Assembly: GCA_036273915.1 (NCBI GenBank)
Contig: DASUGR010000015.1
Coordinates: 1 to 63,829, forward strand
Origin: Planctomycetota bacterium
GTDB lineage: Bacteria; Planctomycetota; PLA2
Reading direction: 5' to 3'
Length of the DNA stretch: 63,829 bases
How positions within the stretch are numbered: the stretch's first letter is position 1; the number at the start of each line of letters is the position of its first letter. The notes beneath the pieces were generated by a model. The model was not told the DNA's origin, ran no database searches, and worked only from the letters and a program-made list of their open reading frames with translations. The position numbers and the translations under genes are program-made. This document shows, in pieces, positions 15,687-52,256 of the stretch.

Positions 15687-17309
<1,623 letters not shown>

Positions 17310-17323
17310 GACCGTTCCCTAAT

Positions 17324-33268: not shown

Positions 33269-33280
33269 CTCGGGCGCCCC

Positions 33281-34612: not shown

Positions 34613-34913
34613 GTGAACCTCCTTGCGCCCCCCCGCAAGGGGCGCATACCCCGGTTAGATCGGCCGGCTGCGGCTTCGTCGCTAGGCTTTGCCTGAGAAG
34701 TCGCCGTCAGGACCGAGACCGAGCGAGGACAAGCCGGACAAGGAGCGCCGACGAAGCCGTACTGACGGAGAAGTACTGCGAGGAGGCGCGACGCAGGGCC
34801 GGCGGCCGCAGCCGGTCGAATCCAGGCGACTTTGCCGGAGGGCCGACCCCGCCGGGATTCGCGCGCGTCCGCGAGGGGAGAAAGGGGGGCCCGGGGGGGG
34901 AGGAGGGGCGCGC

Positions 34914-34949
34914 GGAAAGAAAGAGGCGGCGCCCCAAGGGCGCCGCCTC
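34914..34949 (-). terminator. Intrinsic terminator of porin paralogue 3
   Basis: A perfect 12-bp stem, GAGGCGGCGCCC (34923-34934) paired with GGGCGCCGCCTC (34938-34949), has a 3-nt loop. On the minus strand it is followed by TTTCTTTCC. Confidence 0.8.
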
Positions 34950-34972
34950 CGATTCACACGAGTCGAGAGAAC

Positions 34973-36304
34973 CTAGAACGGGACGTAGACGCGGACGCCC
35001 ATGATGAACAGGGAGTCATCCGCCCAGCTGCCGCCGTCCGCGAACGCGCCGCCACCCGGATTCATCACGAAGAGGAAGTTCGGGGTGACCCAGATCTTGC
35101 CGTTCGCCATCGCGAACCTGTAGTAGAGCTCGAACGCGAACTCCGTGTCCTCCGGAGGAGTGCCCACGACGTCCTCGTCGAGGTGCGTCCACACGAGACC
35201 CGCGCCGAACTGATCGTCCGGACGGCTGGAGATCATGTTCTGGAAGATGAAGCCGACCGCGAAGTCGTAGTCGACCGGGTTCGTGTCCTCGACGTTGAAG
35301 CCGCCGGTGAAGAACACGCCCACCTTCTCGGTGATCCACCAGTCCCACATCCAGCCGATCATGAAGCCCGTGTCGTCGACCGCGAAGGCCGAGCCGGGGC
35401 CCGCGCCGTTCGCGCCGTTGTAGCCGTCGATGTTGAAGAGGAACTTCACGTCCATCTCGCGGCCCTTGACCTCGCCCTTCCAGGCGACCTCGACGTACAG
35501 CTGGCCGTGGTCGAACCACGCGCCGGCCGTGTTGAACCAGCCCCAGCTGACCTTGAACTGCTTCTGGTCGCCGAGCTCGAGCCACATGTAGAGGCCGAGG
35601 GAGGTCGTGCCGGCCGACGTGGTGATCCACTCGACCGAGGCCGGGTCGCTGAACGAGTTGTGGATGAACGTCTTGTTGTTGTCCGCGAACGCGCTGGTGA
35701 TGAACCGGTTGCGCGGATCGATCTCGCCCATCTCCCAGTGCAGGGAGGTGTCGCCGAGGTGCGTGATCGCACGCACGCCGACCTCGTTCGTGGTCACCGC
35801 GCCCGGATTCGTCGGAACGGTGCCGTTCACGCCGATGCCGTCCGTGATGCCCGCGTTCGTGGCGAACGGGAACGCCAGGGCGATCCCCGCCGGGCCGAAG
35901 GCGCCGGGGAACGCGTCCCCGCTGAAGGCGCCCGCGCTCGTGTTCGCGGTCATGTAGCAGAAGAGGGAGACCTCGTCGCTGACCGCAAATTCGAAGTTCA
36001 GGTCGAACTCGCCGCCCACCACGCCGACGTCGGCGCCGTCGCTGCCGATGACGCCCTGGTAGACGCTGGTGAGAGCCGCATGGAGCGTCACGCCCTTGAG
36101 CGAGTCGCCGCCCTGCGCGCCTTCGAAGGCCTTGGTCTCCGCCAGGAAGGCGCTCACGTCCTGTTGCAGCTGGGCTGCCTTCAGGTTCTGATTCTCCTGT
36201 CGGAGCCGTTCGAGCTCGCCCTGCTGGTCTTCGGCGCCCGCGAACGGGGCCGCAAGACAAAGGGCCATGCAGGACACGAATCCTGCGCAAACAAAGCGTC
36301 CCAT
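34973..36304 (-). CDS. OprB-like porin with an N-terminal coiled coil, paralogue 3
   Basis: Starts at an internal ATG at 36304 (MGRFVCAGFVSCMALCLAAPFAGA), with GGAGG 9 nt upstream. The coiled coil reads GELERLRQENQNLKAAQLQQ. It ends VRVYVPF. Confidence 0.8.
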   Translation of the reverse strand: MGRFVCAGFVSCMALCLAAPFAGAEDQQGELERLRQENQNLKAAQLQQDVSAFLAETKAFEGAQGGDSLKGVTLHAALTSVYQGVIGSDGADVGVVGGEFDLNFEFAVSDEVSLFCYMTANTSAGAFSGDAFPGAFGPAGIALAFPFATNAGITDGIGVNGTVPTNPGAVTTNEVGVRAITHLGDTSLHWEMGEIDPRNRFITSAFADNNKTFIHNSFSDPASVEWITTSAGTTSLGLYMWLELGDQKQFKVSWGWFNTAGAWFDHGQLYVEVAWKGEVKGREMDVKFLFNIDGYNGANGAGPGSAFAVDDTGFMIGWMWDWWITEKVGVFFTGGFNVEDTNPVDYDFAVGFIFQNMISSRPDDQFGAGLVWTHLDEDVVGTPPEDTEFAFELYYRFAMANGKIWVTPNFLFVMNPGGGAFADGGSWADDSLFIMGVRVYVPF

Positions 36305-36598
36305 GAATGAAACCTCCGTAATCTCCACCGCTTCTGCGGAATGTTGCCCTTCGACAGGGACTAGATTCAAGCTGCCAATAATAATTCGGGGGAAAAGGAT
36401 TCAAGGCGCAGGGGGCGTCCGAAAAATTGGGTCCTCATGAGCCGGAAAGCAGTACCACGCGGTTCCCTCAAAGGAGTCCGTGTAACCGTTTTGCTCGTTC
36501 AATGGACACAAGCTGCTCCATGACGACACAGAGGCGCCCATCCACCTAACGGATGTAAGGCCAACGGCCGTTCGGACCCGCGCGGAAAGGGCGGGCGC

Positions 36599-37083: not shown

Positions 37084-38838
37084 CTACTCCCCGGCGGGCT
37101 CGTAGGTGGCCCTCGACTCCACGGGGGGGACCCGCGGCTCCAGCCCGTTCACGAGGATGCTCTCGAGCGGCGCCGCCCCCCCGGCGATGATCTCCTGCAG
37201 GTCGAACCCGTGGACGGGCTCGATCACGTCCTGGATCACCGAGGCGTAGTCCTTGATGGCCCGCGACACATCCGAGGAGAGGACGGCGTCCGGCGCCCGG
37301 CTCTCGACCGCGAGGACCCCGGCCACCCGCAGCTCCGCCCGGCCCCCCCTGCCCCCCCCGATCCGGAAGATGGGAACCGCGTAGCAGGACCTCCGGGTGG
37401 GATCGAGGAGCCTCCAGGTCCGCTCGGGAACGCGGAGGTGCCTCTCGTAGAGTTCGCGATACGCATCCCCCCCGAACCGCGGCACGCTGTGGAGGATCAC
37501 GGAGGTCCTGGCCCGGGCCGCGATGCCGACCACCCCCGAGCCCTCCTCGAAGGTGAGCGCACGGAAGTCCCGGCGATGCCCCTCCGAGACGTAGCGGGGC
37601 CGGTAGCGGGACGAGCGGCCCCGCCAGACGTCCGGCCGGTAGTAGAGGACGTGGAACCCGCCCTCCTTGAGGATGCGGTTGAGCCTCGCGGCCAGCGCCT
37701 TCACGACGATCGCCACCGGGTGGCGGTCCGGCGGGTGGGAGAGCGCGGACCAGAGCTTGCTCGTGACGAGCGAGCCCGCGAGCAGCGCCCCGATCGGCGG
37801 CGAACGCTGCCACACGACCGGAAGCAGCGCCACGCCGAGCACGAAGAGCGCGTAGTCGAAGACCCAGCGCACGAGCGCCGCGAGCCAGCGCCGGCGCGTG
37901 GCCGCGGCGACGACGTCCTCCTTCTCGAGGCGCGCGTGGGAGCTGACGTTCGGGCGGATCCGGGTCGACTCCTGGAAGTCCTTGAGCACCTTGATCACGC
38001 TCTCCGCGCTCGAGAAGCGGAGGTTCGGGTCCTCCTGCACGAGGCGCTTCAGGAGCTCGTCCAGGTACTTGAGCGCGGCGGCCTTGCTGGCGAAGACGCC
38101 CGCGCGGCTGCGCGTGAAGTCGACGTGGTCGACGAGGTCCGCGAAGATCCGTCCGACCGCGTAGATGTCGGAGGAGGCCGTCGCCGCGCGCGCGCCCTGG
38201 TAGTAGAGCTCGGGCGCGATGTACTCCTGCGATCCGAAGAGCTCGTCCACCCCCGTGAGGTCGGAGTCCGGGATCTTCGCGAGCCCGAAGTCGACGATGC
38301 GGCAGCATCCCTGCGCGTCCACGAGCACGTTCCAGGGCTTCAGGTCGCGGTGGATGATGCCGCGCTCGTGCACGTGGCGCAGCCCGGCGAGGATCTGCGA
38401 CACGAGGTAGACGACCTCCTCCATCTTCATGTCGCGCTGGCGCGCGTACGCGTAGAGGGTCACCGGCGCGCCGCCGTCCCCCTCCACGAGCTCCATCACG
38501 TAGTAGTAGCAGGGGGTCGGGAGACCCGGCGGCTCGTACCGCCCGTGCTCGAAGACCTTGACGATGTTCCTGTGGTCCGCCTGCTCGAGGATCCGCGCCT
38601 CGCGGACGAACCGCTCGACGTAGCGGCGATCGCGGGCCGCGAGGTCGGGGTCGAGCACCTTGACCGCGTACTTCGCGCGATCGTCGCTCGCGTGGCGCGC
38701 CTCGAACACGGCGCCCATCGCGCCGAAGTCGATCAGGCGCTCGAGCTGGTAGCGCCCGCCCACGGCGCCGCCCACGAGGGAGCGGTAGAAGGACCGCTTG
38801 CGTTCGAGACTAGCGTCCGCGGGGCGCTCGGCTTCCAT
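37084..38838 (-). CDS. Ser/Thr protein kinase with transmembrane segments and a C-terminal GAF-like domain
   Basis: ORF track, 584 aa. Kinase motifs are present: YAVKVL, HRDLKPWNVLV, DFGLAK and APE. Hydrophobic helices lie around aa 330-370. The C-terminal roughly 200 aa look GAF-like (GVVGIAARARTSVIL...YAVPIF...AGVLAVES). Confidence 0.88.
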   Translation of the reverse strand: MEAERPADASLERKRSFYRSLVGGAVGGRYQLERLIDFGAMGAVFEARHASDDRAKYAVKVLDPDLAARDRRYVERFVREARILEQADHRNIVKVFEHGRYEPPGLPTPCYYYVMELVEGDGGAPVTLYAYARQRDMKMEEVVYLVSQILAGLRHVHERGIIHRDLKPWNVLVDAQGCCRIVDFGLAKIPDSDLTGVDELFGSQEYIAPELYYQGARAATASSDIYAVGRIFADLVDHVDFTRSRAGVFASKAAALKYLDELLKRLVQEDPNLRFSSAESVIKVLKDFQESTRIRPNVSSHARLEKEDVVAAATRRRWLAALVRWVFDYALFVLGVALLPVVWQRSPPIGALLAGSLVTSKLWSALSHPPDRHPVAIVVKALAARLNRILKEGGFHVLYYRPDVWRGRSSRYRPRYVSEGHRRDFRALTFEEGSGVVGIAARARTSVILHSVPRFGGDAYRELYERHLRVPERTWRLLDPTRRSCYAVPIFRIGGGRGGRAELRVAGVLAVESRAPDAVLSSDVSRAIKDYASVIQDVIEPVHGFDLQEIIAGGAAPLESILVNGLEPRVPPVESRATYEPAGE

Positions 38839-38877
38839 GGCAAGCCGACCCTCCGCGGCGCGGCGCGGTCCGGAGAC

Positions 38878-39210: not shown

Positions 39211-39309
39211 AATCTCCCCCTTGGCGGCACTTGGAGCCCTACGACTCACAGGACCGCCATTATACGCCCAAAGCGGCCTGGTGCCAAGGCGGGCGGGCAG
39301 GGGCTTACA

Positions 39310-39870
39310 ATGGCGCCGGTGCCGATCTACACGGGCGGAGGAGACCGGGGCGAGACGGGCCTCTTCGGCGGCGGGCGGGTGAGCAAGGACGACCTCCGGG
39401 TGGAGGCGTATGGGGCCGTGGACGAGCTGAATGCCGCCCTGGGCTGCGCGCGCGCCACCGACCTCCCCGGGGAGCTCGAGACCCTGCTCGCGAGGATCCA
39501 GGAGGATCTTTTCGTGCTGGGCGCCGACCTCGCGACGCCGCCGGACGCGACGGTCCGGGCCGACCGCGTGGTGCGGCTGCAGCCCGGCGCCGCGAGGGCG
39601 CTCGAGCCCGAGATCGACCGCCTCGACGCGGCGCTCCCGCCGCTCAAGACGTTCATCCTCCCCGGCGGCTCGCCTGCTGGCGCGGCGCTCCACCTCGCGC
39701 GCACCGTGTGCCGGCGCGCGGAGCGCCGGGTCGTGACGCTTGCCCGGAATGGCGACGTTTCCGGCGAAGCCATCGTGTACCTGAACCGCCTCTCCGATCT
39801 GCTGTTCGTGATGGCCCGCTCGGCGAACGCCCGCGCAGGAGTCCCGGAGGCGCCGTGGAACCCGCGGTGA
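39310..39870 (+). CDS. ATP:cob(I)alamin adenosyltransferase, PduO type
   Basis: C-terminal 186 aa of listed ORF 37210..39870, starting MAPVPIYTGGGDRGETGL. It contains the family motifs RVEAYGAVDELNAALG and FILPGG. Confidence 0.88.
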   Translation: MAPVPIYTGGGDRGETGLFGGGRVSKDDLRVEAYGAVDELNAALGCARATDLPGELETLLARIQEDLFVLGADLATPPDATVRADRVVRLQPGAARALEPEIDRLDAALPPLKTFILPGGSPAGAALHLARTVCRRAERRVVTLARNGDVSGEAIVYLNRLSDLLFVMARSANARAGVPEAPWNPR

Positions 39871-40229
39871 AGGCGCCGCGGAGCCGCGCGCTCTGTACGA
39901 CGTTCGCGGGGACCGGCTTCCTCCTGATGATCATCGGGATCACCTACTTTGCCATGCTCGCCATCTCGGTCCGCTTCGGCGGCGACCAGGGCGAGCGCGC
40001 CGCGTCGTACGTCGAGCTCGGCCGGTTCCTGACGGGCGAGATGGAGTGGTACAAGGACGCGCGCATCTACGGGGCCGTCTCGCTCATGGCGGCGCTCACG
40101 TCGCTCCTCTTCGGCGTGAGCCCGCTCGCGCGCATCACGATCCCGGTGGCCGGGACCTGCTACGTGCTCCTCGTCTTCTTCGGGCACCAGATCGCCAAGC
40201 TCATCGAGGGCTGGGCGAGCCTCGGTTGA
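39867..40229 (+). CDS. Small membrane protein (3 transmembrane helices), unknown function
   Basis: The GTG start at 39867 overlaps the upstream stop as GTGA. The product is 120 aa with hydrophobic helices such as FLLMIIGITYFAMLAISV. Confidence 0.6.
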   Translation: MKAPRSRALCTTFAGTGFLLMIIGITYFAMLAISVRFGGDQGERAASYVELGRFLTGEMEWYKDARIYGAVSLMAALTSLLFGVSPLARITIPVAGTCYVLLVFFGHQIAKLIEGWASLG

Positions 40230-40317
40230 TCCGTCGTCGCGCCAGGCCCCTGGCCGCGTCGGTGGCCCGCTCCGCCCGCCTTCGCGCCCCCGGCGTTTCG
40301 GCGAGGCCGCACGTCGG

Positions 40318-42297
40318 CTACGCCGACGGGCGGAACATCCCCTCCTCGTAGGCGACGATCCTGCCCTCGATCGCGGAGGCCGCGACCGTCAGGGGCGACG
40401 CGAGGTAGAGGCGACCGGGGCCGGAGCGGCCCGTGTAGTTCCGGTTGATCGCGCTGACCGTCACCTGGTCGGGCCGCTCGGAGACGCCCGGGCCGCAGCC
40501 GATGCACGCGCCGCAGCCGGGATCGAGGAGCGTCGCGCCCGCCTTCCGGAAGATCTCCGTGAGCCCCGCCTTCTCGCAGTGGCGCTTCACCTCAAGCGAT
40601 CCGTACTGCACGAAGAACAGAACGCCCGGGGCGACGCGGCGGCCCGCCGCCACGGCCTCGCGCAGGACGCGCGCGTACATCTCGAGGTCGTCGATCTTGC
40701 CGGCCGTGCACGACCCGGCGTAGGCGATGTCGATCTTCACGTCGCCGATCTCGTCGACGTAGGCGCCGTTCGTCGGATCGCTCGGGACCCCGTTGTCGGG
40801 ATCCCCGGGGTGCGCGACCATCGGCCGCAGCGAGGAGAGGTCGATCGTGTGCACGCCGCCGTCGTACTTCGCGCCGGGGTCGGGCGCGACGGCGCGGGCG
40901 CGCAGCGCGGCGACGTCGGTGCCGGGCCGCTCCGCCGCGATCCAGCGGAACGTATCCTCGTCCGCCTCGACCATGCCGGCGCGCGCCGAGCACTCGGTGG
41001 CCATGTTCGCGAGCGTCGCGCGCTCGTCCATCGACAGCGACCTGAGGCCAGGCCCGCCGAACTCCATCGCGCGGTTGAGCGTGAGGCCGCGGCGCACGAA
41101 GGTCATGAGGAGGAAGAGCATCACGTCCTTCGCCGTGCACCCCGGCTTCAGCTCGCCCTTGAGCTCGAAGCGGATCGACTCCGGGACGGTGAGCGGCGTG
41201 AACCCGGCGTGGATCAGGTTCGCGTATTCGGTCGCCCCGACGCCGTAGGCGTACGCGTTGTTGCCGCCGCCCATCGTCGTGTGGCTGTCGGTCGCGAGGA
41301 TCAGGTCGCCCGGCTCGATGAACTGCTCGCGCGCGACCTCGTGGCAGATGCCGGGCGACACGCCGTCCTTGACCGAGTAGTCGCGCTGGCCGGTGTGCCT
41401 CTGGTAGACGCGCTGGATCTCGCGCAGCGTCGCGATCTTCTTCGCGAACGGCATCATCTTCCTCACGCCGTCCGCGTAGTGCAGGTGGTCCTCGAAGACC
41501 GCGAACTTCTGCGGGTTCGCGATGCCGTAGTCCTTGCCGTACTCCTCCTCGAGGAAGGCGTGCACCTGCGCGGAGGTGAACTCGTGGCTGTAGCCGCCGT
41601 CCACGTCGGCGAGCACGGCGTCGCCCGGCTTGACAGGGCCCTCGCCGCCGACGAGGTGGCGCGCGATGACCTTCTCCGCCATCGTCATCGGGCGCTTGCC
41701 CGTCGAGGGGCGCGGGATCCTCACCCTCTTCTCGGCGAGCGCCTTGCTGAACGCGAAGAGCCCGCCGTGCTCGATCACGAGCTTCGTGATCGGGTCGTGT
41801 CCCGCGGTGAACTCCGACAGCGGCACCTTCTCGCCCGCCTGGAGCCGGCGCAGGATGTCGTAGCCGCACATGAGCACGCCCTGGTTGATGTTGTTCTTCG
41901 CGTGGATCGGCGCGAAGCTCGCGGCGACCGTGATGCGGATGCCGCACCACTTCTCCGCCTGCACCGCGGTCTCGCGCGACGACCCGACGCCCTTGCGCTC
42001 GCCGGCGACGATCACCTCGAAGTTCCCGTCGAGGAGCGCGCGCTCCGGGATCACGCGACTGCCCGCCTCCATGAGCCCCGCATAGGCGTTCTTCGCGATC
42101 TCGCCGGGCATGTAGTCGAAGCAGACCCACGCGGGCGTCATCACGTCCGTGTTGATGTCGTCGAGCAGGTCCTCCGGCCGCACGTCGTCGAGCGTCAAGG
42201 AGATCTCGCCCGCGAGCTGCCTCCGGATCAGCCCGAAGTCCTTGGTGAGAAACAGGATGCGCTTGCCGGGCGTGAGGGAGACGGTGGGCTCTGCCAT
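40318..42297 (-). CDS. Aconitase/isopropylmalate-isomerase family hydro-lyase with the swivel (small-subunit-like) domain at the N-terminus
   Basis: Starts at an internal ATG at 42297 (MAEPTVSLTPGKRILFL), giving 659 aa. The N-terminal LeuD-like region contains GERKGVGSSRE. The LeuC-like region follows, with DSHTTMGG, GSCTAGK and CGACIGCG as Fe-S ligand motifs. Confidence 0.85.
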   Translation of the reverse strand: MAEPTVSLTPGKRILFLTKDFGLIRRQLAGEISLTLDDVRPEDLLDDINTDVMTPAWVCFDYMPGEIAKNAYAGLMEAGSRVIPERALLDGNFEVIVAGERKGVGSSRETAVQAEKWCGIRITVAASFAPIHAKNNINQGVLMCGYDILRRLQAGEKVPLSEFTAGHDPITKLVIEHGGLFAFSKALAEKRVRIPRPSTGKRPMTMAEKVIARHLVGGEGPVKPGDAVLADVDGGYSHEFTSAQVHAFLEEEYGKDYGIANPQKFAVFEDHLHYADGVRKMMPFAKKIATLREIQRVYQRHTGQRDYSVKDGVSPGICHEVAREQFIEPGDLILATDSHTTMGGGNNAYAYGVGATEYANLIHAGFTPLTVPESIRFELKGELKPGCTAKDVMLFLLMTFVRRGLTLNRAMEFGGPGLRSLSMDERATLANMATECSARAGMVEADEDTFRWIAAERPGTDVAALRARAVAPDPGAKYDGGVHTIDLSSLRPMVAHPGDPDNGVPSDPTNGAYVDEIGDVKIDIAYAGSCTAGKIDDLEMYARVLREAVAAGRRVAPGVLFFVQYGSLEVKRHCEKAGLTEIFRKAGATLLDPGCGACIGCGPGVSERPDQVTVSAINRNYTGRSGPGRLYLASPLTVAASAIEGRIVAYEEGMFRPSA

Positions 42298-42343
42298 GGT
42301 TTCATTCGTATTGTAGGACGGTGTCCCAGCCCGACGAGGCAAA

Positions 42344-42356
42344 GGGGGTCCGGGGG
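42344..42356 (+). repeat. Exact copy of the 13-mer GGGGGTCCGGGGG (intergenic)
   Basis: Read directly, 47 nt upstream of the aconitase-family start codon. Confidence 0.9.
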
Positions 42357-42477
42357 AGGAGCCTCCAATAAACCGGCATCCGCGCTCCGCCGCAAGGGCA
42401 TGCACGCGGCGCGCGTCTCAAACCGGGGCCCGTGCCGGAAGCGCGGGGACGGCGGTCGGCCGTGCCCGGCGCGTGCC

Positions 42478-45195
42478 TCACCCGAGCGGGATCAGGAGCC
42501 GCACGGTCTCCGTCGGCTTCACCTCGACGGGGAACGAGCGCGGGCCGTCCGGCGCGAGCACGTGGAGCACGTAGCTCCCGGGGGCGAGGAACCCCGACTC
42601 CAGCCGGTCGCCGTCGACCTCCCAGACCACGGCCTCGGCGGGGAGCTTCGCCGCCCGCGGATCCACGCTCCCCTCGACCCACACGTCGGGAAGCGGCCCG
42701 GCCACGTTGAGGAAGCGGACGGAGATCCTCCCGCAGGCGAAGACGTCGAGCCGGAGCTCCGCGGTCTCCCCCCGCTTGAGCGTCACGCGGCCGGAGGCGG
42801 GCAGGAACATCCCGACGGGCGTCGCGACCACGGAGTAGACGTCGGGCTCGAGGTCCTCGAGGACGAACCGCCCGTCTTCCACGATCGCCTTCCTCTGCGA
42901 CGGGAAGCCGCGGTCCGGCCCGAGGTCGAACGAGCAGACGGCCGGAAGCGCCACGCCATCCTCGGAGCGGAGCGCGACCCGGAGCGTGGCGAACCGCGGC
43001 TCGTGCTGGAGATCGAAGGCCACCTCCCCCGTGGTCGCGACGATGTCGCGCATCTCGGGCGCGAACCCCGGACCCGATGCGACGAGGGAGAGCGCCTCGC
43101 CCGGGCGCGCGAGGAGGACCACGCGACCCCCCGGCGCGCGGAGCGACGGCGACGACCCGTCTTCGCGCCGCACGTCGACGACGGCGCCGCCGATCAGCAC
43201 GCCGTCGCCGCGCACGGAGACCGCGATGCGCGCCACCGGCTCCGCGAACGCCGCGACGCCCGGCGCCACCACGTCGATCGCCTCGTACGGCGGCGCGGTG
43301 CCGTCGGAGAGCGCCTCGACCTCCACGCGGTACGTGCGCGCGGAGAGGCCCGCGAGCGCGAAGCGGCCGTCGCCGGCCGTCTCGGCGCTGACGCTCTTCC
43401 ACGCGATGCCGGCCGCCTCGACGGAAAGCGTCGGCCCGTCGGCCCCGAGCGAGAGCGTGCGGCCCGCCTCCACGAGGAGCGACGCGCGCACCCTCGCGCG
43501 CGAGGCCGGCGCGTCCGCGACGTGCACGCTCCCCTCGATCGGGACGCCGGCGCGCAGCACCAGCGACGGGATCTCCGCGTCCCCGACCGCGACCGCGACG
43601 GCCCCCGCGGGCGCGTACGCGGGCGCGGCGGCCGCGACCAGGTAGGACCCGCCGCGGTCGACCGGGATCCGGTACCGGCCCGCCGCGTCCGTGCGCGCGG
43701 CGGCCACGGGCCGGTCGCCGGCCGAGGGGAAGACGGCCACGGTGGCGTCCGCGGCGGGGCCGTACCCCTCGAGCTCGACCACGCCCTCGAGGTACGCGAC
43801 GGCGACGAGGTCGATCTCCACGAACGGCAGCACGGGCGCGCCGGTCGCGGGATCGAAGAGCACCGCGACGCCGGTCTCCCGCGGCGCGGCGTCGGGGTGC
43901 GACGCGCGCACGCGCAGCTCCTCCGGCATCGGGTCAAGGAGCAGCGCCGCGACGTCGAGCGAGAAGGGTTCGCCGCCGCGCGCGAGCGTCCGCGCGCGCG
44001 CGCCGCCCGGCCGCCACGCCTCGACGAGCACCGACGCATTGGACGCGCCCCCCGGCAGCCGCACGACGCCCTCGAGCGGGACGCCCGCCGCGGCCGCGCG
44101 GCCCGCCCTCCTCCCCTCCCCCGGAGCCCCTTCCCCTCCGTCCGCGAGGGGCTCGCGATCCTCCGCGGCGCGCTCCGCGAGGAGATCCTCCTCCGGCACG
44201 AGCGCACGGCGGCGCAGCGCGACCTCCATGCGGCCGGGCACGGTCGCGACCTCCTCGCGGGGCTCCGATTCGGGGTGCTCGATGCGCACGCGGACGAGGC
44301 CCTGCCGCGCGATGCGCGAGAGGTCGATCGCGAACGGCTGGTCCCCCGGCACGACCGCGACGGGCCCGCCGTCGAACGCCAGGCGGACGGTGCGCTCGAC
44401 CGCGCCCCCGGGCAGGTGCACGATGCCGTCGAGGACGAGCGCCGCCTCGCCGGACGGCGCGGGCGGCGCGACCGCGCCGGCGGGAAGCATGAGGGCGACC
44501 CCGGGCGCGGGTCGCGGGGCGCGCGGTCCGCCCGCGTTCGCGCGCGCCTCGGGCGTGGTGCGGAGGGGGCTCGGGGGAGGGGTGCGCGCGAGGAGCGCGG
44601 CCACGGCGAGCAGCGCCGCGATGCCCGCCGCGCGCAGGAGGCCCTTCGACGGGCGCGGCGCGGCGATCGCGAGCAGCGTCGCGGCCGAGAAGGCGTGGCC
44701 GTTCCCGTTGCCGTCCTCGAGCCGCGCGCGGATCCGCGCGAGCCCGCGCTGGATGCGCGTGCGCACGGTCGAGCCGGGGAGCGCGAGGCGGTCGGCGATC
44801 GATCTCGGGGAGAGCCCGTCGTAGTAGCGGAGGAGCAGGGGCTCCCGGTAGATGTCCGGCAGCGCGACGACGAGCTCGGCGATGCGGCGGCGGAGCGCGC
44901 GCTCGGCGACGAGTTCGTCCGTCGCGACGACGGCGTCCGTGCGCGCGGCGGTGCGCTCGCGGCGCGCGCGGCGCTCGTGGTCGCGGCGCGCTCGCCGCAC
45001 GAGGTTCTTCACGATGCCCGCGAGCCAGCCCGCGCGCACCTCCTCGGGACGCTTCGCGCTCCGGAGCGCGACGAGCCAAGCCTCCTGCACGACGTCGTCC
45101 GCCGCCACGTCGTCGCCGAGGAGCCGGCGCGCCAGCGCGCGAAGGAACGAATCGTGCTCGAGAAGACCCTCGACCTGCGGGTTCGTCATCCCCAC
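42478..45195 (-). CDS. Single-polypeptide fusion of an ECF sigma factor (regions 2 and 4), one transmembrane helix and a roughly 700-aa CarboxypepD_reg-like beta-sandwich array
   Basis: ORF track, 905 aa. The N-terminus reads LLEHDSFLRALARRLLGDDVAADDVVQEAWLVAL (sigma region 2). Region 4 reads YREPLLLRYYDGLSPRSIADRLALPGSTVRTRIQRGLARIRARL. The hydrophobic helix is LLRAAGIAALLAVAALLA. Repeats of the type TDAAGRYRI and TAGDGRFAL follow. Confidence 0.85.
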   Translation of the reverse strand: MGMTNPQVEGLLEHDSFLRALARRLLGDDVAADDVVQEAWLVALRSAKRPEEVRAGWLAGIVKNLVRRARRDHERRARRERTAARTDAVVATDELVAERALRRRIAELVVALPDIYREPLLLRYYDGLSPRSIADRLALPGSTVRTRIQRGLARIRARLEDGNGNGHAFSAATLLAIAAPRPSKGLLRAAGIAALLAVAALLARTPPPSPLRTTPEARANAGGPRAPRPAPGVALMLPAGAVAPPAPSGEAALVLDGIVHLPGGAVERTVRLAFDGGPVAVVPGDQPFAIDLSRIARQGLVRVRIEHPESEPREEVATVPGRMEVALRRRALVPEEDLLAERAAEDREPLADGGEGAPGEGRRAGRAAAAGVPLEGVVRLPGGASNASVLVEAWRPGGARARTLARGGEPFSLDVAALLLDPMPEELRVRASHPDAAPRETGVAVLFDPATGAPVLPFVEIDLVAVAYLEGVVELEGYGPAADATVAVFPSAGDRPVAAARTDAAGRYRIPVDRGGSYLVAAAAPAYAPAGAVAVAVGDAEIPSLVLRAGVPIEGSVHVADAPASRARVRASLLVEAGRTLSLGADGPTLSVEAAGIAWKSVSAETAGDGRFALAGLSARTYRVEVEALSDGTAPPYEAIDVVAPGVAAFAEPVARIAVSVRGDGVLIGGAVVDVRREDGSSPSLRAPGGRVVLLARPGEALSLVASGPGFAPEMRDIVATTGEVAFDLQHEPRFATLRVALRSEDGVALPAVCSFDLGPDRGFPSQRKAIVEDGRFVLEDLEPDVYSVVATPVGMFLPASGRVTLKRGETAELRLDVFACGRISVRFLNVAGPLPDVWVEGSVDPRAAKLPAEAVVWEVDGDRLESGFLAPGSYVLHVLAPDGPRSFPVEVKPTETVRLLIPLG

Positions 45196-45416
45196 CTGCC
45201 AAGAGTGCCCCCGTCGGTACCCTCAGGGGAGTATACGCGGCCGTGCGGCGCTTGCGGACGTGCGTTTTTCGCCAAAATGCGTGCACGTACCCATGCGACG
45301 GAACGGCCCCCCGCGGGCATGATGGGAATCGGGTTCGGTCCCGAATCCTGTCGACTCCTGTCGCGCGCGCGAGGACGCGACGGGAGCCCGCGCGCCGGAC
45401 ATACTGGGGTGGACGG

Positions 45417-45432
45417 CGGCACGTTCGCCGCC
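45417..45432 (+). promoter_or_regulatory. Weak sigma-54-like element (CGGCACG-N4-CCGC) upstream of the lipoprotein/IPT operon
   Basis: GG and GC are correctly spaced by 10 nt and GGCACG matches the consensus. Both T residues of the -12 TTGC are replaced by C. The element lies about 85 nt upstream of the ATG at 45516. Confidence 0.2.
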
Positions 45433-45515
45433 ACGCGGGCGCGCGCGGCGCGCACGCGGATCCACATGGAATACCGGCTCGCGATCCGACACGCGGGCAC
45501 GATGGAGGTAGGGAC

Positions 45516-45911
45516 ATGAGAAGGCTCCTCGCGATCGGCGCGTCCGTCGCGCTCGCCCTCGTGGCGGGCTGCGGCGGCGACGGCGCCTCCCCGGGTGGCG
45601 GGCAACCCCCGCTCCAGGCGCTCGACCAGCAGACGCTCGTCGTGCAGATGGACCAGAACGGGGACAACGAGCTCGACCTCGTCACGCTCGACATGAGCGA
45701 GAGCCCGTTCGTCATCCTCGAGTGCCTCTACGGCATGCCGGGCGGCGACTTCGAGGACGTGACGGGAACCGTCAAGGGCCGTTCGATCGACCCGGCGGTG
45801 TCCGGGGCGCTCGCGACTTTCATGGGCGGCTCCTTCGGCGTCGCGGACCGCACCGAGCTGGATGTCACGAACTCGAACGGCGACCCGATGCGGGTCGTCG
45901 TCTTCGAATAG
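45516..45911 (+). CDS. Small lipoprotein, unknown function
   Basis: Internal ATG at 45516 has GGAGG 7 nt upstream. MRRLLAIGASVALALVAGCGGDG carries a lipobox. The product is 131 aa. Confidence 0.8.
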   Translation: MRRLLAIGASVALALVAGCGGDGASPGGGQPPLQALDQQTLVVQMDQNGDNELDLVTLDMSESPFVILECLYGMPGGDFEDVTGTVKGRSIDPAVSGALATFMGGSFGVADRTELDVTNSNGDPMRVVVFE

Positions 45912-45921
45912 GAGGCGGGCG

Positions 45922-47565
45922 ATGAGAACCCTTCTGACCCCGCTCCTTTCCGTGCTGCTCCTCGCGGCGGGCGCGTTCGCGCAGTCGATCGACGAGGTGA
46001 AGCCCGCGTGCGCCGCCCCCGGCGACGCCATCCTCCTCAAGGGCAGCGGCTTCTCCGGGTCGCCGGCCGTCCACTTCGGCGCCGCCGAGGCGGAGATCCT
46101 GCGCAGCAGCGAGAGCCGCATCATCTGCCGCGTGCCCGAGGGGCTCGCGGAAGGCGACGTGACCGTCGACGCCGACGGCGCCAAGGCCTCCTTCCACGTC
46201 CTCGCGGAGGGCGCGCCGGCCATCGTCCACGTGAGCGCCGGCACCGCGACGCCCGGCATGCTCGTGTTCTTCGTCGGCGCCCGCCTCAAGGGCGCGGAGG
46301 CCGCGTTCGTGGACGGTGACGACGCGACCGTCGCGACGGTGGAGCTCAAGGGCGGATGGCGAGCCGCGTACCTGAAGGTGCCGGGCGATCTCGCGCCGGG
46401 TACCTACACGGTCGTGATCTCGAACGAGGCCGGCGACTCCGGCCCCTGCTCGCCGACGCTCGTGGTCGTCGAGGAGGGCGAGCCGACCCTCGCGTCGATC
46501 GAGCCGTCGGAGCAGCTGCCCGGACGGCCGGTCCTCTGCAAGGGCACCGACCTCGGCCCGGTGGGGTTCTGCTTCCTCACGTGGACCGACGGGGACGGCA
46601 ACGGACTCTACACGTACGGGTTCACGAACGGCTACGACACGATCCACACGTGGGTGCCGTGGGACGCCGCGGCCGGGGCGACCTACGACGTGACGATCGA
46701 CTTCGCCGACGGATCCTCGACCGAGGGCACGGGCGCGCTCGCGTACACGGTCGGCGTCCCGGAGCCCCCCGAGATCGTCGATCTCGAGTACGAGGAGGGC
46801 CCGCCGGGCAGCCTCGTCACGATCTTCGGGACGAACCTCGTCGGCAGCGGCTTCGCCTGGCCGAGCGTGCTCTTCACGCGCGACGGCAGTTCGACCGAGG
46901 CGCTCGTCTACTACGCGTTCGGAAGCTACCCGGGCGGCGGCCTCGGCGGCGATCCCCTCCACGGCAACGGCGGGCCGAACGCGCTCCAGGGACTCGGCGG
47001 CGACGGCCTCGACCAGATCCTCGTCGAGGTCCCGCGGAGCCTCGAGGATGGGGACTACGACGTCACCGTGACCGTGAACGGGCAGACGTCGGACGCCAAG
47101 GTGTTCACGGTCGTCGACCTGCCGCTCACGGTGACCTCCATGAGCCCGGACAGCCAGGGGCCGTGGGGACCCGAGGGCGTGGTCGTGATCGAGGGCACGG
47201 GCTTCGGCGTGCCGGACTTCGACTTCGTCATCGCCGACGGCAGCGCGGCGAACGGCGTCGCCGGCGACCCGTCCGGCGTCCCGTTCCAACCCTCCTTCAA
47301 GGTGAAGGTGACGTGGCAAAAGGGCGGCGGCGACCCGCTCACGGGCGAGGTGCTCTGGCACCACGACCGCGAGATCCTCGTGATCCCGCCGGGGGGTTGG
47401 GAGCACCCGCTGGCGGTCGGCACCTACACGGTCTACGTCACCGTCGAGCACGACGACGAGAGCACGGAGACCGTCGAGGCCGGCACCTACACCGTCCACG
47501 AGAAGCAGGACGACGGCGGCAGCAACGGCTTCCCGGGCGATCCGGGCGGCATCCTCCGCAAATAG
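45922..47565 (+). CDS. Secreted protein built of IPT/TIG-like Ig-fold repeats
   Basis: Internal ATG at 45922 has AGGAGG upstream. The signal peptide reads MRTLLTPLLSVLLLAAGAFAQS. Repeated units have the form PGDAILLKGSGFSGSP...DVTV, GTYTVVISN and GDYDVTVTVNG. Confidence 0.8.
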   Translation: MRTLLTPLLSVLLLAAGAFAQSIDEVKPACAAPGDAILLKGSGFSGSPAVHFGAAEAEILRSSESRIICRVPEGLAEGDVTVDADGAKASFHVLAEGAPAIVHVSAGTATPGMLVFFVGARLKGAEAAFVDGDDATVATVELKGGWRAAYLKVPGDLAPGTYTVVISNEAGDSGPCSPTLVVVEEGEPTLASIEPSEQLPGRPVLCKGTDLGPVGFCFLTWTDGDGNGLYTYGFTNGYDTIHTWVPWDAAAGATYDVTIDFADGSSTEGTGALAYTVGVPEPPEIVDLEYEEGPPGSLVTIFGTNLVGSGFAWPSVLFTRDGSSTEALVYYAFGSYPGGGLGGDPLHGNGGPNALQGLGGDGLDQILVEVPRSLEDGDYDVTVTVNGQTSDAKVFTVVDLPLTVTSMSPDSQGPWGPEGVVVIEGTGFGVPDFDFVIADGSAANGVAGDPSGVPFQPSFKVKVTWQKGGGDPLTGEVLWHHDREILVIPPGGWEHPLAVGTYTVYVTVEHDDESTETVEAGTYTVHEKQDDGGSNGFPGDPGGILRK

Positions 47566-48526: not shown

Positions 48527-48605
48527 TTCGAGCCCTCCGTGCGGCGCGCCGGGGAGCGGTTCCCCGGCCGGGGCCGCGACGTTTCCCCATGGGAGGTGAA
48601 TGCCA

Positions 48606-49055
48606 ATGGCCAACCTGATCCGTCTGACCGGGCTCGAGGGCCTCGCCGCCCTCGAGGACCGCATGAACCGGCTCGTCGAGGAGGTCTTCGGCGGCGAGCG
48701 GGCGCTCGCCCGGGGCGCCGAGGGCGGCTTCGTGCCGGTCGTGGACATGTTCGAGACGGCCGAGTCCGTCGTCGTGAAGCTCGAGGCGCCGGGCGTCGAT
48801 CCTGCGAAGATCAACGTCGCCGTCACCGGCGACCACCTCGAGGTGAGCGGCGAGAAGGCCGCGGAGGAGCCGCCGAAGGAGAGCCGCTGGTTCCGCTTCG
48901 AGCGGCGCACCGGCCCGTTCCACCGCCGGATCCCGCTTCCCTTCCCCGTCGACGCGAGCAAGATCGACGCGACCGCGAGAAACGGCCTCGTCACGATCCA
49001 GCTCCCGAAGAAGGCCGAGATCCTTCCGAAGCGCATCGCCGTCAAGCCGGCGTAG
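48606..49055 (+). CDS. Small heat-shock protein, Hsp20/alpha-crystallin family
   Basis: ORF track 48600..49055. I prefer the second ATG at 48606 because the GGAGG spacer is 9 nt rather than 3 nt. The alpha-crystallin domain reads VDMFETAESVVVKLEAPGVDPAKINVAVTGDHLEVSGEK...FERRIPLP...ATARNGLVTIQLPK. Confidence 0.9.
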   Translation: MANLIRLTGLEGLAALEDRMNRLVEEVFGGERALARGAEGGFVPVVDMFETAESVVVKLEAPGVDPAKINVAVTGDHLEVSGEKAAEEPPKESRWFRFERRTGPFHRRIPLPFPVDASKIDATARNGLVTIQLPKKAEILPKRIAVKPA

Positions 49056-49258: not shown

Positions 49259-50809
49259 TTACCGTCTGCGCGCGCGGTCGATCGCCTGCTGCGCCTCCGC
49301 GAGCAGGTCGGCGCACGCGCCCGGCCATTCCTTCGCCCTGTTCGTGGCGTCGAGGAACGCCTCGAGCGCATCGTCGACGCGTCCGGCCGCGGCGAGCGAC
49401 ATCGACCGGTGGGCGGGCCAGTCGGGCCGCCCCGGCTCGAGCGCCGCCGCCGCGGCGTAGAGCGTGGCGGCCTCGCCGTAGCGCCCCGCCGCGTGCGCCG
49501 CGAGCGCGAGGTCCCCGGCGGTGCGCGCGCCGCCTCCGTCGAGCGCGACCGCCGCCCACGGACGGTCGCGGAACGCGGGCGACGCGATGTTCCCCCAAGC
49601 CCCGCACAGCACCGCGACCAGGATCACGAGGGCGAAGAGGCCGAGGGTTGCCGCGCGCGAAGGCGGCTTCGGGCGCGGGTAGGGCGGCGGCGCTCCGAGC
49701 GCGACGAGCCGGTCGTAGAGGTGCGGGTGCGTCGCGCCGCGGAAGACGACGGGGACGAGGTTCAGGCGGTAGAGGTCCGCGAGCGCCTCGGCGTAGACGC
49801 CCGGCGCCGGCTCGCACGCCTTCGCGCCCTCGTCCGCGCGCGTCTCGAAGGCGCGGAGCCTCCCGGTGGCGAGCTTCCCCACGAGGACGATGAGCACGAC
49901 CGCGAGGAGCGCGACCGCGAGCCCGCCCGCCGCGACGAGCGGCTTCAGGAGCAGCAGCGGCGAGAGCGCGAGCATCGCCACGAGGCGGGTGCGGCGCGCC
50001 CCCGCCGGCTCGCCCAGGTGCGTGAGCTCGTGCCCCCCGATCGCGAGGATGCTCTTGCGCTCGAGCTTTTCGAGCGCCGAGCGCGTGAAGCCGAGCCGCG
50101 ACGCGAACGGCAGCGCGTACGCGTTCGCCTCCGGCAGCTCGATGATGTGCACGCCAAGGAGCGGGATCCCGGCGCGCGAAGCGGCCGCATGGAGCTCGTC
50201 CGCGATCTCGGGGGGTGCAGGGGGCGCGAGACCGGGCACGCGCGCCATGCGGAAGCCGCCGCCACGCGCGAGCCAGACGAGGACGGGCATCGAGACCGCG
50301 AACAGCGCGGCGCCGTCGACGCCGAAGCGGAAGGGCATCGCGAACGCCACGACGACCATCAGCCACAGGTGCGGATACATGACGAGCACGCGCGTCGCCA
50401 TCCCGAGGAGCGCGCGGCGGAACGTCCAGGCGCTGCCGACGAGCAGGCGCGCGAGCCGGCGGCGCCAGAACACCGCGGCGAGAAGCGACGCGAGCGCCGC
50501 CGCCGCGGCGACGACGCCGTCGCCGCCCAGGAGCCCGCCCCTCGCCCGCGGCACGGTCACGACGAGCGTGGCCGGCAGGGCGATGCTCGCGATCACGAGT
50601 GCTGCGCGCGACGGGTAGAGGGCGCGCGCGCGGACGTGCCACGGCGCGCGGAGCGCGTCGGCGCGGCGCGCGAGCAGGAAGAGCAGCCCGCACAGCGCGA
50701 ACGTGGCGAGGAACGCGACGGCCGCGTAGAGGGCGACGGCTGCCGGAAGCACCCATCCCGGAACGAACCTGTGCACCGCCTCGATCCCCACGGGGCGGGA
50801 TCGTAGCAA
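49259..50809 (-). CDS. Polytopic membrane zinc metallopeptidase (M48/M56-like, HExxH) with a C-terminal TPR-like region
   Basis: ORF track, 516 aa, TTG start; alternative GTG starts lie at 50791 and 50776. It has several transmembrane helices. The motif is AIGGHELTHLGE, and the C-terminal helical repeats read AAHAAGRYGEAATLYAAAAALEP. Confidence 0.75.
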   Translation of the reverse strand: MLRSRPVGIEAVHRFVPGWVLPAAVALYAAVAFLATFALCGLLFLLARRADALRAPWHVRARALYPSRAALVIASIALPATLVVTVPRARGGLLGGDGVVAAAAALASLLAAVFWRRRLARLLVGSAWTFRRALLGMATRVLVMYPHLWLMVVVAFAMPFRFGVDGAALFAVSMPVLVWLARGGGFRMARVPGLAPPAPPEIADELHAAASRAGIPLLGVHIIELPEANAYALPFASRLGFTRSALEKLERKSILAIGGHELTHLGEPAGARRTRLVAMLALSPLLLLKPLVAAGGLAVALLAVVLIVLVGKLATGRLRAFETRADEGAKACEPAPGVYAEALADLYRLNLVPVVFRGATHPHLYDRLVALGAPPPYPRPKPPSRAATLGLFALVILVAVLCGAWGNIASPAFRDRPWAAVALDGGGARTAGDLALAAHAAGRYGEAATLYAAAAALEPGRPDWPAHRSMSLAAAGRVDDALEAFLDATNRAKEWPGACADLLAEAQQAIDRARRR

Positions 50810-51612: not shown

Positions 51613-52256
51613 CCGACGCGTGGCAGCAGCGCTCCAACCAGCGATTTCGCGGCGAGGGGTACGCGGCCTACTACGAGGGGCGCTACCGGAGCTTCCTCAA
51701 GGGCACGCTCAAGCACCGGCTGCGCTGCGCGGTCCTCAGGCGCGCGTTCCGCGACGTGCCGGCGGGGAGCCTCGTCCTCGACGTGCCGTGCGGGACCGGG
51801 CGGTTCACGGGGTTCCTGCTCGGCCGCGAGTACCGCGTGTTCGGCACCGACATCGCACCCGAGATGATCCGAATCGCGAAGGGGAAGGCGGGCGAGATCC
51901 CGGGGATCCTCGGCTGGGCGTCGGCGGACGCGACGCGGATGCCGCTTCCGGACAAGAGCGTGGACTCGGTGCTCACGATGCGCCTTTTCCACCTCGTGCC
52001 GGCCGAGGTGCGCCCGGCGATCTACAGGGAGCTCGCGCGGGTGTGCCGGGGCCAGCTCGTGCTCTGCTTCAACTGCAACAAGTGGGCGCTGAAGCATCTC
52101 GGCAAACGATTGCGCGGCGAGGCGCCGGAGTACCTGAAGACGAAGAGCGAGCTCAAGCGCGAGCTCCTTGACGCGGGCCTCCGCGTGGAGCGCATCCACA
52201 CGAAGGGGTTCGGCCCCTTCTCGACGCTCTGGGCCGTCGTCTGCCGCCCGGCGTGA
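51609..52256 (+). CDS. Class I SAM-dependent methyltransferase
   Basis: The GTG start at 51609 overlaps the upstream stop as GTGA. Motif I is VLDVPCGTGRFTGFLL, followed by VFGTDIAPEMI and a Methyltransf_11-like core. Confidence 0.85.
   Translation: MTDAWQQRSNQRFRGEGYAAYYEGRYRSFLKGTLKHRLRCAVLRRAFRDVPAGSLVLDVPCGTGRFTGFLLGREYRVFGTDIAPEMIRIAKGKAGEIPGILGWASADATRMPLPDKSVDSVLTMRLFHLVPAEVRPAIYRELARVCRGQLVLCFNCNKWALKHLGKRLRGEAPEYLKTKSELKRELLDAGLRVERIHTKGFGPFSTLWAVVCRPA

Follow-up and report, generated by a model that had tools for sequence, protein, structure and literature searches.

A membrane-tethered ECF sigma factor fusion of Planctomycetota with a predicted beta-sandwich ectodomain and a conserved upstream motif pair

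Introduction

Planctomycetota encode dozens of extracytoplasmic function (ECF) sigma factors per genome, and the control of most of them is not understood. In the stretch of DNA analysed here (contig DASUGR010000015.1 of assembly GCA_036273915.1, 63,829 nucleotides (nt), hereafter the window), one gene, referred to as locus 1, joins an ECF sigma factor in a single polypeptide to a transmembrane (TM) helix and a large array of predicted beta-sandwich domains, so that the sigma factor itself would be the membrane receptor. The locus raises the question of how such a sigma factor could be kept silent and how it could be set to work. Our analysis identified the fusion as one real gene, related it to a large and mostly planctomycetal family, and placed it in a conserved module together with a lipoprotein, a secreted IPT/TIG protein and a pair of promoter-like motifs; these features point, with reservations given below, to a sigma factor that would be held at the membrane and freed by proteolysis. 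The architecture had been described in an earlier note on this DNA, made from the sequence and its open reading frames (ORFs), and its claims are taken up where the results bear on them.

A single gene encodes the fusion

The window is the complete 63.8-kb contig of a Planctomycetota metagenome-assembled genome with about 71% G+C. Because this composition gives long ORFs in several frames, the coding phase was checked first. The ORF 42478..45195(-), confirmed in the ORF list of the window, showed a third-position G+C content (GC3) of 0.88-1.00 in each 50-codon segment from the first to the last codon (about 0.96 throughout), and the phase was unchanged across the junction between the sigma and TM parts. 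The earlier note had taken the whole ORF as the gene. The gene itself is real, and its true start is the ATG at 45189, two codons in, since the NCBI record and all orthologues begin there ("MTN/MTK"). The resulting protein of 903 amino acids (aa) plus stop matches at 100% the NCBI 903-aa entry "RNA polymerase sigma factor [Planctomycetota bacterium]". Residue numbers for the domains described below follow the 905-aa translation of the ORF.

A region of very high G+C is prone to long spurious ORFs, and one might suspect an assembly or frameshift error that wrongly joined an ordinary sigma gene to a separate gene for a membrane anti-sigma factor or a domain array. An example of such a spurious frame is the 1646-aa ORF 40579..45519(+), antisense to the aconitase and sigma-fusion genes, which was rejected as a high-GC artefact, codon-position G+C assigning the coding sequence to the minus strand. 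For the fusion, the coding phase does not change across the sigma/TM junction, and the same continuous ORF was found in eight independent orthologous loci (assemblies from NCBI, JGI and ENA; orthologue lengths 887-996 aa) and in hundreds of metagenomic relatives, with no split pair of sigma and array genes among the neighbours seen. The artefact reading is effectively refuted, and the fusion is one real gene. The earlier note had argued the same from a second copy of the architecture in the window and had proposed a comparison of orthologues; no stop or frameshift splits the gene in any of the eight loci.

Domain organisation and membrane topology

The N-terminal part of the fusion is a complete ECF (group 4) sigma2/sigma4 core. 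Both Pfam sigma domains are matched over their full length (Table 1), and the NCBIfam ECF model TIGR02937 spans aa 13-159 with 65.1 bits against a cutoff of 42.9. The DxxQ motif and W55 of sigma region 2 are invariant in the family, and the closest solved structures to the core are SigW, SigK, SigE and SigL. With identities of 56-91% across orthologues, the sigma core is also the most conserved part of the fusion. Pfam searches at E<=0.1 detected no sigma3 domain, no region 1 and no anti-sigma family in the locus-1 fusion; no anti-sigma gene adjoins it, and no Cys occurs in aa 1-250. The earlier description of a complete ECF factor followed by one hydrophobic helix, with neither an anti-sigma domain nor an adjacent anti-sigma gene, agrees with these results.

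Only one hydrophobic 19-mer is present in the fusion (Table 1). Of 289 relatives, 281 have a single TM helix in the corresponding position (median start aa 199), and only four have a second strongly hydrophobic segment. The net charge in these relatives is +1.3 before the helix and -0.4 after it, which favours an N-in/C-out topology, and the domain types of the ectodomain are typical of extracytoplasmic proteins, in keeping with a periplasmic array. The fusion is thus likely a single-pass inner-membrane protein with its N-terminus in and its C-terminus out.

The roughly 25 aa between sigma4 and the helix had been called a short linker. The length is as stated, and alignment across the family indicates that the segment is a degenerate copy of a family-wide motif and more than a mere linker. 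Across 289 members the consensus directly before the TM helix is LRxRLD-(H)GG(D)RRxW-xxALLPLA...P...GG-LM-K-K; its positions are conserved at G 83%, R 73%, W 79%, L 85%, P 71%, A 81%, then G 75%, and a Trp at the end of the TM helix is conserved at 85%. In the clade of locus 1 the motif is degenerate, GNGHAFSAATLLAIAAPRPSK, and AlphaFold2 predicts a juxtamembrane helix at residues 164-176 with a low predicted local distance difference test (pLDDT) score. At about 40 aa or less, the segment is too short to be a class I anti-sigma domain.

On the other side of the membrane, Pro, Ala, Gly, Ser and Thr make up a fraction of 0.55 of the 60 aa after the helix, family-wide. The ratio of nonsynonymous to synonymous substitution rates (dN/dS) was used only to rank the regions of the protein, absolute values being unreliable at a GC3 of about 0.96; in relative terms it was about 1.0 for the tether, 0.45-0.69 for the ectodomain and 0.20-0.26 for the sigma core. 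Being disordered (pLDDT <40) and neutrally evolving (dN/dS about 1), the tether looks like a protease substrate.

The remainder of the protein had been described as a CarboxypepD_reg-like array. A large all-beta ectodomain is indeed predicted; only about three of its units carry the signature, and there is a single occurrence of the strict D[AG]xGR[YF]x[IL] motif. CarboxypepD_reg (PF13620) was matched in three stretches with 65.6 bits against a cutoff of 32.3, and the remaining units are beta-sandwiches by structure prediction only. In the AlphaFold2 model, built on 20 orthologues (mean pLDDT 76.9), the sigma part folds into helices, residues 160-248 are of low confidence, and residues 252-901 are all-beta at pLDDT 85-93, with a disordered insert at 339-368. 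Foldseek searches with the full-length model returned only generic tandem Ig/transthyretin-like arrays (TIE protein, Gram-positive pilins, SdrD B and the MG domains of alpha-2-macroglobulin) and matched no enzyme or defined ligand-binding fold. Sequence conservation of the ectodomain extends down to 31% identity. The model suggests a real folded domain array in the form of a rod of about 650 aa. With seven or eight sandwiches such a rod would be long enough to cross the periplasm, and it is conceivable, as a speculation, that it senses envelope spacing or surface contact.

The fusion family and a second copy in the window

A search with the full-length protein returned 62 proteins, all of which contained sigma domains and CarboxypepD_reg, with a hydrophobic segment directly after sigma4 in 62/62; nearly all came from Planctomycetota and one from Kofleriaceae. 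For a second search against 1.84 billion representative proteins, aa 1-213 alone served as the query, and ectodomain bias was therefore avoided. This search gave 222 clusters (50% identity) at E<1e-30, so the family comprises at least 222 clusters. Among its 140 new top matches, 131 had a hydrophobic helix at aa 150-300 and 110 were at least 600 aa long. The short matches mostly stop within the TM helix and are for this reason regarded as contig-end fragments. CarboxypepD_reg was detected by Pfam in 49 of 52 sampled long members, a PQQ_2 propeller appeared as a rare alternative extension in one of the 52, and no anti-sigma family was among the top 25 Pfam families of these sampled relatives. 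As judged from these comparisons, the locus-1 fusion belongs to a large, mostly planctomycetal, uncharacterised family that shares its architecture. A scan of GTDB genomes with the sigma-core alignment was of no use for promoter work: the back-translated pattern amounted to the generic region-2.2 motif, the matches were mostly unrelated ECFs of Actinomycetota and Bacillota, and only a handful were true relatives (loci L009, L010 and L035).

The second copy to which the earlier note had pointed, here locus 2, proved to be a paralogue of the same architecture (Table 1). Its sigma core is 45% identical to that of locus 1 (E 1e-30), and its CarboxypepD_reg match reaches 223.5 bits in eight stretches, the ectodomain being otherwise unrelated in sequence. 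Locus 2 has 160 relatives at E<=1e-30, one of which carries an FGE-sulfatase domain. A third array at the end of the contig gave no sigma match within the window; its N-terminus lies beyond the contig end.

Family members often occur in clusters elsewhere, too, with three within 13 kb in L090 (1-12036) and two in tandem, 71 nt apart, in L094 (1-7219). Sigma domains with other extensions lie near such fusions (L006:2087-3832, 581 aa, without a Pfam match; L091:8566-10653, 695 aa, with a faint SQHop_cyclase_C match).

A conserved three-gene module

Eight orthologous loci were compared, namely the window and those labelled L001, L002/3, L004/5, L006, L007, L008 and L092, with fusion identities from 73% to 32%. 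The only neighbours kept in 8/8 loci are the genes of a lipoprotein and of an IPT/TIG protein, and in every case they are divergent from the fusion. These correspond to the divergent operon of the earlier note, whose gene assignments are borne out by the translations and by Pfam TIG. The conserved gene order indicates that the fusion, the divergent lipoprotein and the secreted IPT/TIG protein form a three-gene module, kept down to 32% identity.

The lipoprotein measures 125-136 aa across the eight loci, and its invariant loop VVQxDxNGDxxxDxxTLD is similar to an FG-GAP/EF-hand Ca2+ site. Its identity is 71-91% where the adjoining fusion is at 52-73%. An AlphaFold2 model of the lipoprotein (pLDDT 65.5) gave no PDB match by Foldseek at E<=0.001. 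The IPT/TIG gene starts 11 nt after the lipoprotein gene and encodes 486-548 aa at 48-80% identity across the loci. Conservation ranks highest for the sigma core, followed by the lipoprotein and TIG protein and then by the ectodomain; the identities are 91%, 88%, 80% and 70% (sigma core, lipoprotein, TIG, ectodomain) against L001, and 56%, 45%, 48% and 31% against L008.

All other neighbours vary, the aconitase, HSP20, M48 peptidase and methyltransferase genes being kept in the closest relatives only. No FecR or DUF4880/4974 match was found in the fusion by Pfam at E<=0.1, and no TonB-dependent receptor was present among the neighbours in the eight loci. The nearby membrane HExxH peptidase of the earlier note exists as an M48 metallopeptidase (Table 1). 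As a candidate for a conserved site-1 protease it was rejected: an orthologue is present in L001 and L002 only, and the evidence is weak. In L092 an M48 gene directly follows the TIG gene; its product is 29% identical over the catalytic region and non-orthologous. An HSP20 gene at 48600..49055(+) adjoins the M48 peptidase gene of the window; of the other loci, only the close relatives L001 and L002 retain this pair next to the module.

A bipartite motif upstream of the fusion gene

The intergenic region between the fusion and the lipoprotein gene contains a bipartite element, (G)TATG(C/T)CCG-N13-CGTC(C/G)CA, with the core TGCCCG-N13-CGTC. It was derived by aligning seven intergenic regions, L092 serving as a held-out eighth locus, and it is present in two copies per intergenic region in 8/8 loci. 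The spacer has a fixed length of 13 nt, and its sequence is not conserved. In all eight loci both copies are oriented toward the fusion gene. The distance from the proximal copy to the fusion ATG is 104-130 nt in all loci, and the copy nearest the lipoprotein lies at a variable 33 to 129 nt from the lipoprotein start. In L092 (4301 and 4401, +), the most divergent of the loci compared, both copies have TGTC in place of CGTC, a parallel change within one genome that suggests co-variation with the sigma factor.

The element is specific to these regions. Neither the 64-kb window nor about 110 kb of orthologous loci contained another position weight matrix site of >=17 bits, and a loosened regular expression gave nine matches outside these regions in about 837 kb on two strands, which corresponds to an expectation of about 0.003 per 278-nt spacer, with two seen. 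Unbiased dyad enumeration recovered only the TGCCCG-N13-CGTC element, and no second conserved dyad that could serve the lipoprotein operon was found in the intergenic regions. A scan of 42300..45700 yielded no sigma-70-type promoter or terminator, and the intergenic region had no Rfam match. A weaker match, TGTCCG-N13-CGTCGC, lies antisense inside the methyltransferase gene at 51954(-) of the window and at L001:1403(+); these positions are orthologous, and the match probably reflects conservation of the coding sequence.

The earlier note had suggested a search for a -35/-10 motif shared by the divergent partner genes and the fusion genes of both loci. A conserved motif was found at locus 1; it is not shared with locus 2, and both copies point at the fusion and not at the lipoprotein operon. 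Neither this motif nor a relative of it was convincingly found upstream of locus 2 or other paralogues, and the intergenic regions of locus 2 and L089 (57-68 nt) contain common blocks and no clear ECF dyad.

Read on the strand of the fusion, the element shows the canonical geometry of an ECF promoter: its spacing is xGC-N16-CGT, its -35 block is long, and its -10 block is short and contains GTC; the hallmark features of such promoters are summarised in PMC8103513. Because of this geometry, the orientation and the constant distance to the fusion ATG, the two copies are probably tandem autoregulatory promoters of the fusion gene.

Possible modes of control

Membrane sequestration followed by release through regulated intramembrane proteolysis, with autoregulation, is the explanation towards which we lean as the best one available, because IutY of Pseudomonas putida has the same topology and is activated by Prc and RseP. 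According to this explanation, the anchor would hold the sigma domain at a distance from core RNA polymerase and from promoters, and thereby inactive. The array, with the lipoprotein and/or the IPT/TIG protein, would sense a periplasmic signal that exposes the tether to a site-1 protease; the ectodomain would be trimmed, after which an RseP-type site-2 protease would cut within the TM helix. The freed sigma factor of about 20 kDa could then bind core RNA polymerase and transcribe its own gene from the two motifs, as a positive feedback, along with other targets. In canonical sigma/anti-sigma pairs, periplasmic partners such as RseB may shield the sensor from proteolysis; in cell-surface signalling, partner proteins (TonB-dependent transducers) do so until there is a signal (PMC11637429), and the lipoprotein and TIG protein could play a similar part here.

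Several observations weigh against this explanation. No site-2 protease (M50) gene is present in the 64-kb window, and among the eight loci only close relatives keep a protease together with the locus-1 module. The conservation of the juxtamembrane motif gives a hint of further regulation, which simple tethering and release would not explain. No motif site beyond the pair upstream of the gene itself was found in the sequence searched, and hence no regulon target is pointed to. The -35 block of the motif lacks AAC and is atypical, the -10 block and the spacing being canonical, and the motif, if read on the opposite strand, would serve the lipoprotein operon.

On that strand the copies read TGGGACG-N13-CGGGCATA and could be sigma-dependent promoters of the lipoprotein/IPT-TIG operon, which would then be the output of the system, with the sigma gene not autoregulated. 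We regard this as possible and rather doubtful. The operon is the sole conserved neighbour, the usual hallmark of an ECF target, and the upstream block GGGAC resembles the canonical GGAAC, with A-tracts just upstream of it in L004, L006 and L007; moreover, the intergenic region is without any other conserved dyad. The -10 block, however, would be the 8-nt CGGGCATA without CGT or GTC, and the spacing from GAC to CGG would be 14 rather than 16-17, whereas the geometry on the fusion strand follows the hallmarks in PMC8103513. The distances tell the same way, the constant 104-130 nt to the fusion ATG contrasting with the 33-129 nt to the lipoprotein start. Much further removed is the idea that the sigma-like N-terminus is degenerate and non-functional and that the protein is in essence a component of the envelope, structural or adhesive, with an anchor in the cytoplasm. 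The ectodomain does resemble adhesin and pilin stalks and evolves faster than other parts of the protein; the sigma core, in turn, is the most conserved part, at 56-91% identity and a dN/dS of 0.20-0.26, its Sigma70_r2 and r4_2 matches are full-length with the core-binding and DNA-binding positions invariant, and a promoter-like motif upstream appears to co-evolve with it, all of which makes this reading very improbable.

An unlikely alternative of a different kind, and one with wider consequences, is that the sigma factor works while anchored and is never released, recruiting core RNA polymerase to promoters near the membrane in the manner of a ToxR/CadC-like one-component regulator. Such promoters might be held near the membrane by the co-translational insertion of neighbouring envelope genes, and the array might modulate activity allosterically or by oligomerisation. 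The sole detectable motif copies lie beside the fusion gene itself, the flanking genes all encode exported or membrane proteins, and no protease is conserved with the module, as this alternative would have it. The juxtamembrane segment of 25-40 aa is conserved family-wide, as for a functional connector and not a disposable tether; at the same time, a holoenzyme of about 400 kDa would have little space at the membrane surface with a connector of 25 aa, and the periplasmic tether, being disordered and under neutral evolution, has the look of a protease substrate. We know of no sigma factor that acts while membrane-anchored, which also counts against it. The C-terminus of sigma4 tolerates extensions in the holoenzyme, as in ECF41/42 (PMC7826278), but IutY, the sole studied protein of the same topology, strictly needs RseP cleavage (PMC5411451). 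In a more specific form, judged less likely again, the sigma factor would never leave the membrane and would form holoenzyme at its inner face. Transcription would start at no promoters other than the pair next to its own gene, a locus kept at the membrane as the exported proteins of the module are inserted co-translationally, with the juxtamembrane GGDRRxW-ALLPLA as a switch that couples the state of the rod to sigma activity.

If a sigma factor did act while anchored, this would be a new mode of bacterial transcription initiation. Under membrane sequestration and release, the family would be a candidate system in which tethering alone serves the anti-sigma function. It may also provide a candidate orthogonal sigma/promoter pair for synthetic biology and a lead on how Planctomycetota monitor their unusually structured cell envelope.

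Relation to known systems

In ToxR and CadC, a DNA-binding module at the cytoplasmic N-terminus is followed by one TM helix and a periplasmic sensor; these proteins are winged-helix activators that work while anchored. In Bacillus subtilis, the membrane-associated pro-sigmaK is activated directly by SpoIVFB, an intramembrane metalloprotease of the site-2 type; it differs from the fusion in having a short N-terminal pro-sequence on a group-3 sigma factor and no extracytoplasmic sensor domain. The RpoE-RseA (DegS/RseP) and FecI-FecR-FecA systems resemble the proposed mechanism in that a periplasmic signal, followed by site-1 and site-2 proteolysis, yields a free sigma factor. In contrast to the RpoE-RseA type, here the sigma factor itself would be the proteolysis substrate, and inhibition would occur by tethering alone.

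The closest known system is IutY of P. putida, a FecI-like ECF243 factor and sigma/anti-sigma hybrid in which one TM segment joins a cytosolic sigma domain to a periplasmic one, and from which Prc and RseP release the sigma factor (PMC5411451; PMC8999054); its truncation leads to constitutive activity (PMC5411451). Both proteins are one polypeptide with a TM segment directly after sigma4, a periplasmic regulatory domain and no cytoplasmic anti-sigma domain. IutY, described as unique, has 374 aa, a FecR-type periplasmic domain and the TonB-dependent transducer IutA as its partner, whereas the locus-1 fusion has a 650-aa beta-sandwich array, no FecR, a lipoprotein and an IPT/TIG protein as partners, and a sigma core of another clade. 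Its family, in further contrast, has hundreds of members with several copies per genome.

C-terminal extensions rank second in frequency among the ways in which ECFs are regulated, represented in 19 groups (PMC7826278). In ECF48, ECF52 and ECF53 of Actinobacteria (e.g. SCO4117), the extension contains TM helices and an extracytoplasmic Pro-rich region with a binding domain, and proteolytic activation has been proposed (PMC5826349, PMC8999054). These groups differ in that a zinc-finger (ZAS-type) anti-sigma domain separates sigma4 from the membrane; Pfam gave no zf-HC2 or RskA match in the locus-1 fusion, where only about 25 aa separate sigma4 from the TM helix. The soluble extensions of ECF41, ECF42 and ECF56 are also distinct, as Pfam found no SnoaL-like or TPR extension in the fusion and a TM helix is present.

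Among planctomycetal ECFs, large variable C-terminal extensions and multiple paralogues have been noted for ECF01-Gob/ECF57 and for the duplicated clusters of Pinto & da Fonseca 2020 (PMC7671368; PMC7826278, PMC8999054). They share with the fusion the phylum, long variable extensions, several paralogues per genome and the lack of a separate anti-sigma factor. ECF57 has WD40-like repeats and two conserved cysteines that link sigma2 and sigma4 (PMC8999054), and averages 5.3 copies per planctomycetal genome (bioRxiv 10.1101/2019.12.11.873521). In our family no sigma-core column exceeds 8% Cys, 201 of 289 relatives have no Cys in the first 165 aa, and Pfam detected no WD40 or beta-propeller repeats in the locus-1 fusion. 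The family is thus set apart from ECF57, as described, by the absence of conserved Cys and by extensions that are almost always CarboxypepD_reg arrays. It also differs from the extensions interpreted as "fortuitous insertion" by Pinto & da Fonseca (PMC7671368), the ectodomain here being a conserved array that is folded confidently in the model.

The earlier note knew of no characterised member with this ectodomain. In the literature searched, no ECF sigma factor with CarboxypepD_reg arrays, no lipoprotein/IPT-TIG module and no such motif was described, although the ECF Hub may already list the group. The ectodomain is, in this sense, undescribed; the novelty of the architecture as a whole had been overstated, as membrane-tethered ECFs (IutY, ECF48/52/53) and large variable planctomycetal ECF extensions are already catalogued (PMC8999054, PMC7671368, PMC7826278). 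What appears to be new from the sequence comparisons is the three-gene module, the two-copy bipartite motif and the family-wide juxtamembrane motif.

Other features of the window

The coordinates of the fusion gene, its parts and the genes discussed in the text are collected in Table 1.

Table 1. Features of the window around the locus-1 fusion and its paralogues, with the basis of each assignment.
Feature	Position	Strand	Basis
Fusion gene: ECF sigma, TM helix, beta-sandwich ectodomain	42478..45189	-	GC3 phase, NCBI match, orthologues
Sigma region 2, aa 14-76	44968..45156	-	Pfam Sigma70_r2, 41.7 bits, E 1e-10, model positions 5-71 of 71
Sigma region 4, aa 103-155	44731..44889	-	Pfam Sigma70_r4_2, 44.6 bits, E 1.2e-11, model positions 2-54 of 54
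Cytoplasmic juxtamembrane segment, aa 160-182	44644..44712	-	Degenerate copy of family motif GGDRRxW-xxALLPLA ... GG-LM-K-K
Single predicted TM helix, aa 183-201	44587..44643	-	Kyte-Doolittle 19-mer score 2.14; AlphaFold2 helix 188-201
Pro/Ala-rich disordered linker, predicted periplasmic, aa 202-250	44440..44586	-	pLDDT 26-40
Predicted ectodomain, aa 251-903: 7-8 tandem beta-sandwiches	42481..44439	-	AlphaFold2, Foldseek, Pfam PF13620
Proximal motif tcATGCCCG-N13-CGTCgca	45294..45322	-	Same relative position in 8/8 loci
Distal motif gTATGTCCG-N13-CGTCgcg, same orientation	45376..45404	-	Present in 8/8 loci
Lipoprotein, 131 aa, lipobox LVAG/C (slash marks the cleavage site)	45516..45911	+	Translation; conserved in 8 loci
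Secreted multi-IPT/TIG protein, signal peptide MRTLL...AFA/QS	45922..47565	+	Pfam TIG, E 2.7e-16; translation
Polytopic M48 metallopeptidase, HELTH at aa 260, C-terminal TPR	49259..50809	-	Pfam; motif
Second sigma-TM-CarboxypepD_reg fusion (locus 2), 1033 aa, paralogue	55812..58913	-	Pfam sigma r2/r4 and CarboxypepD_reg
Divergent partner of locus 2: secreted TPR and DUF1570 protein	58982..61099	+	Pfam; HEGFH...NEGLAEY motif
Third CarboxypepD_reg array, >891 aa, N-terminus cut by contig end	61153..63828	-	Pfam PF13620, 8 stretches

Locus 2 has a divergent partner of its own, a TPR-DUF1570 protein whose HExxH motif with a downstream Glu is gluzincin-like. The same pairing is present in L089 (2414-4630), the locus of a 57%-identical orthologue, and probably in L093. 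From its motif and its position, this protein is a candidate periplasmic protease partner for locus 2.

Further from the fusion, three tandem OprB-family porin genes were identified at 31985..36400(-), and in L001 and L002 the same OprB pair is situated downstream of the module. At 39231..40319(+), the codon-position G+C phase switches near 39800, which may reflect a frameshift or pseudogene, or two short overlapping genes. The contig is also rich in signalling genes, with two Ser/Thr protein kinases, one of them with TPR, and a GAF-sigma54 activator (11184..13361(+), 37087..38877(-) and 15690..17318(-)); a Ser/Thr kinase is found near the module in L001, L002 and L004 as well.

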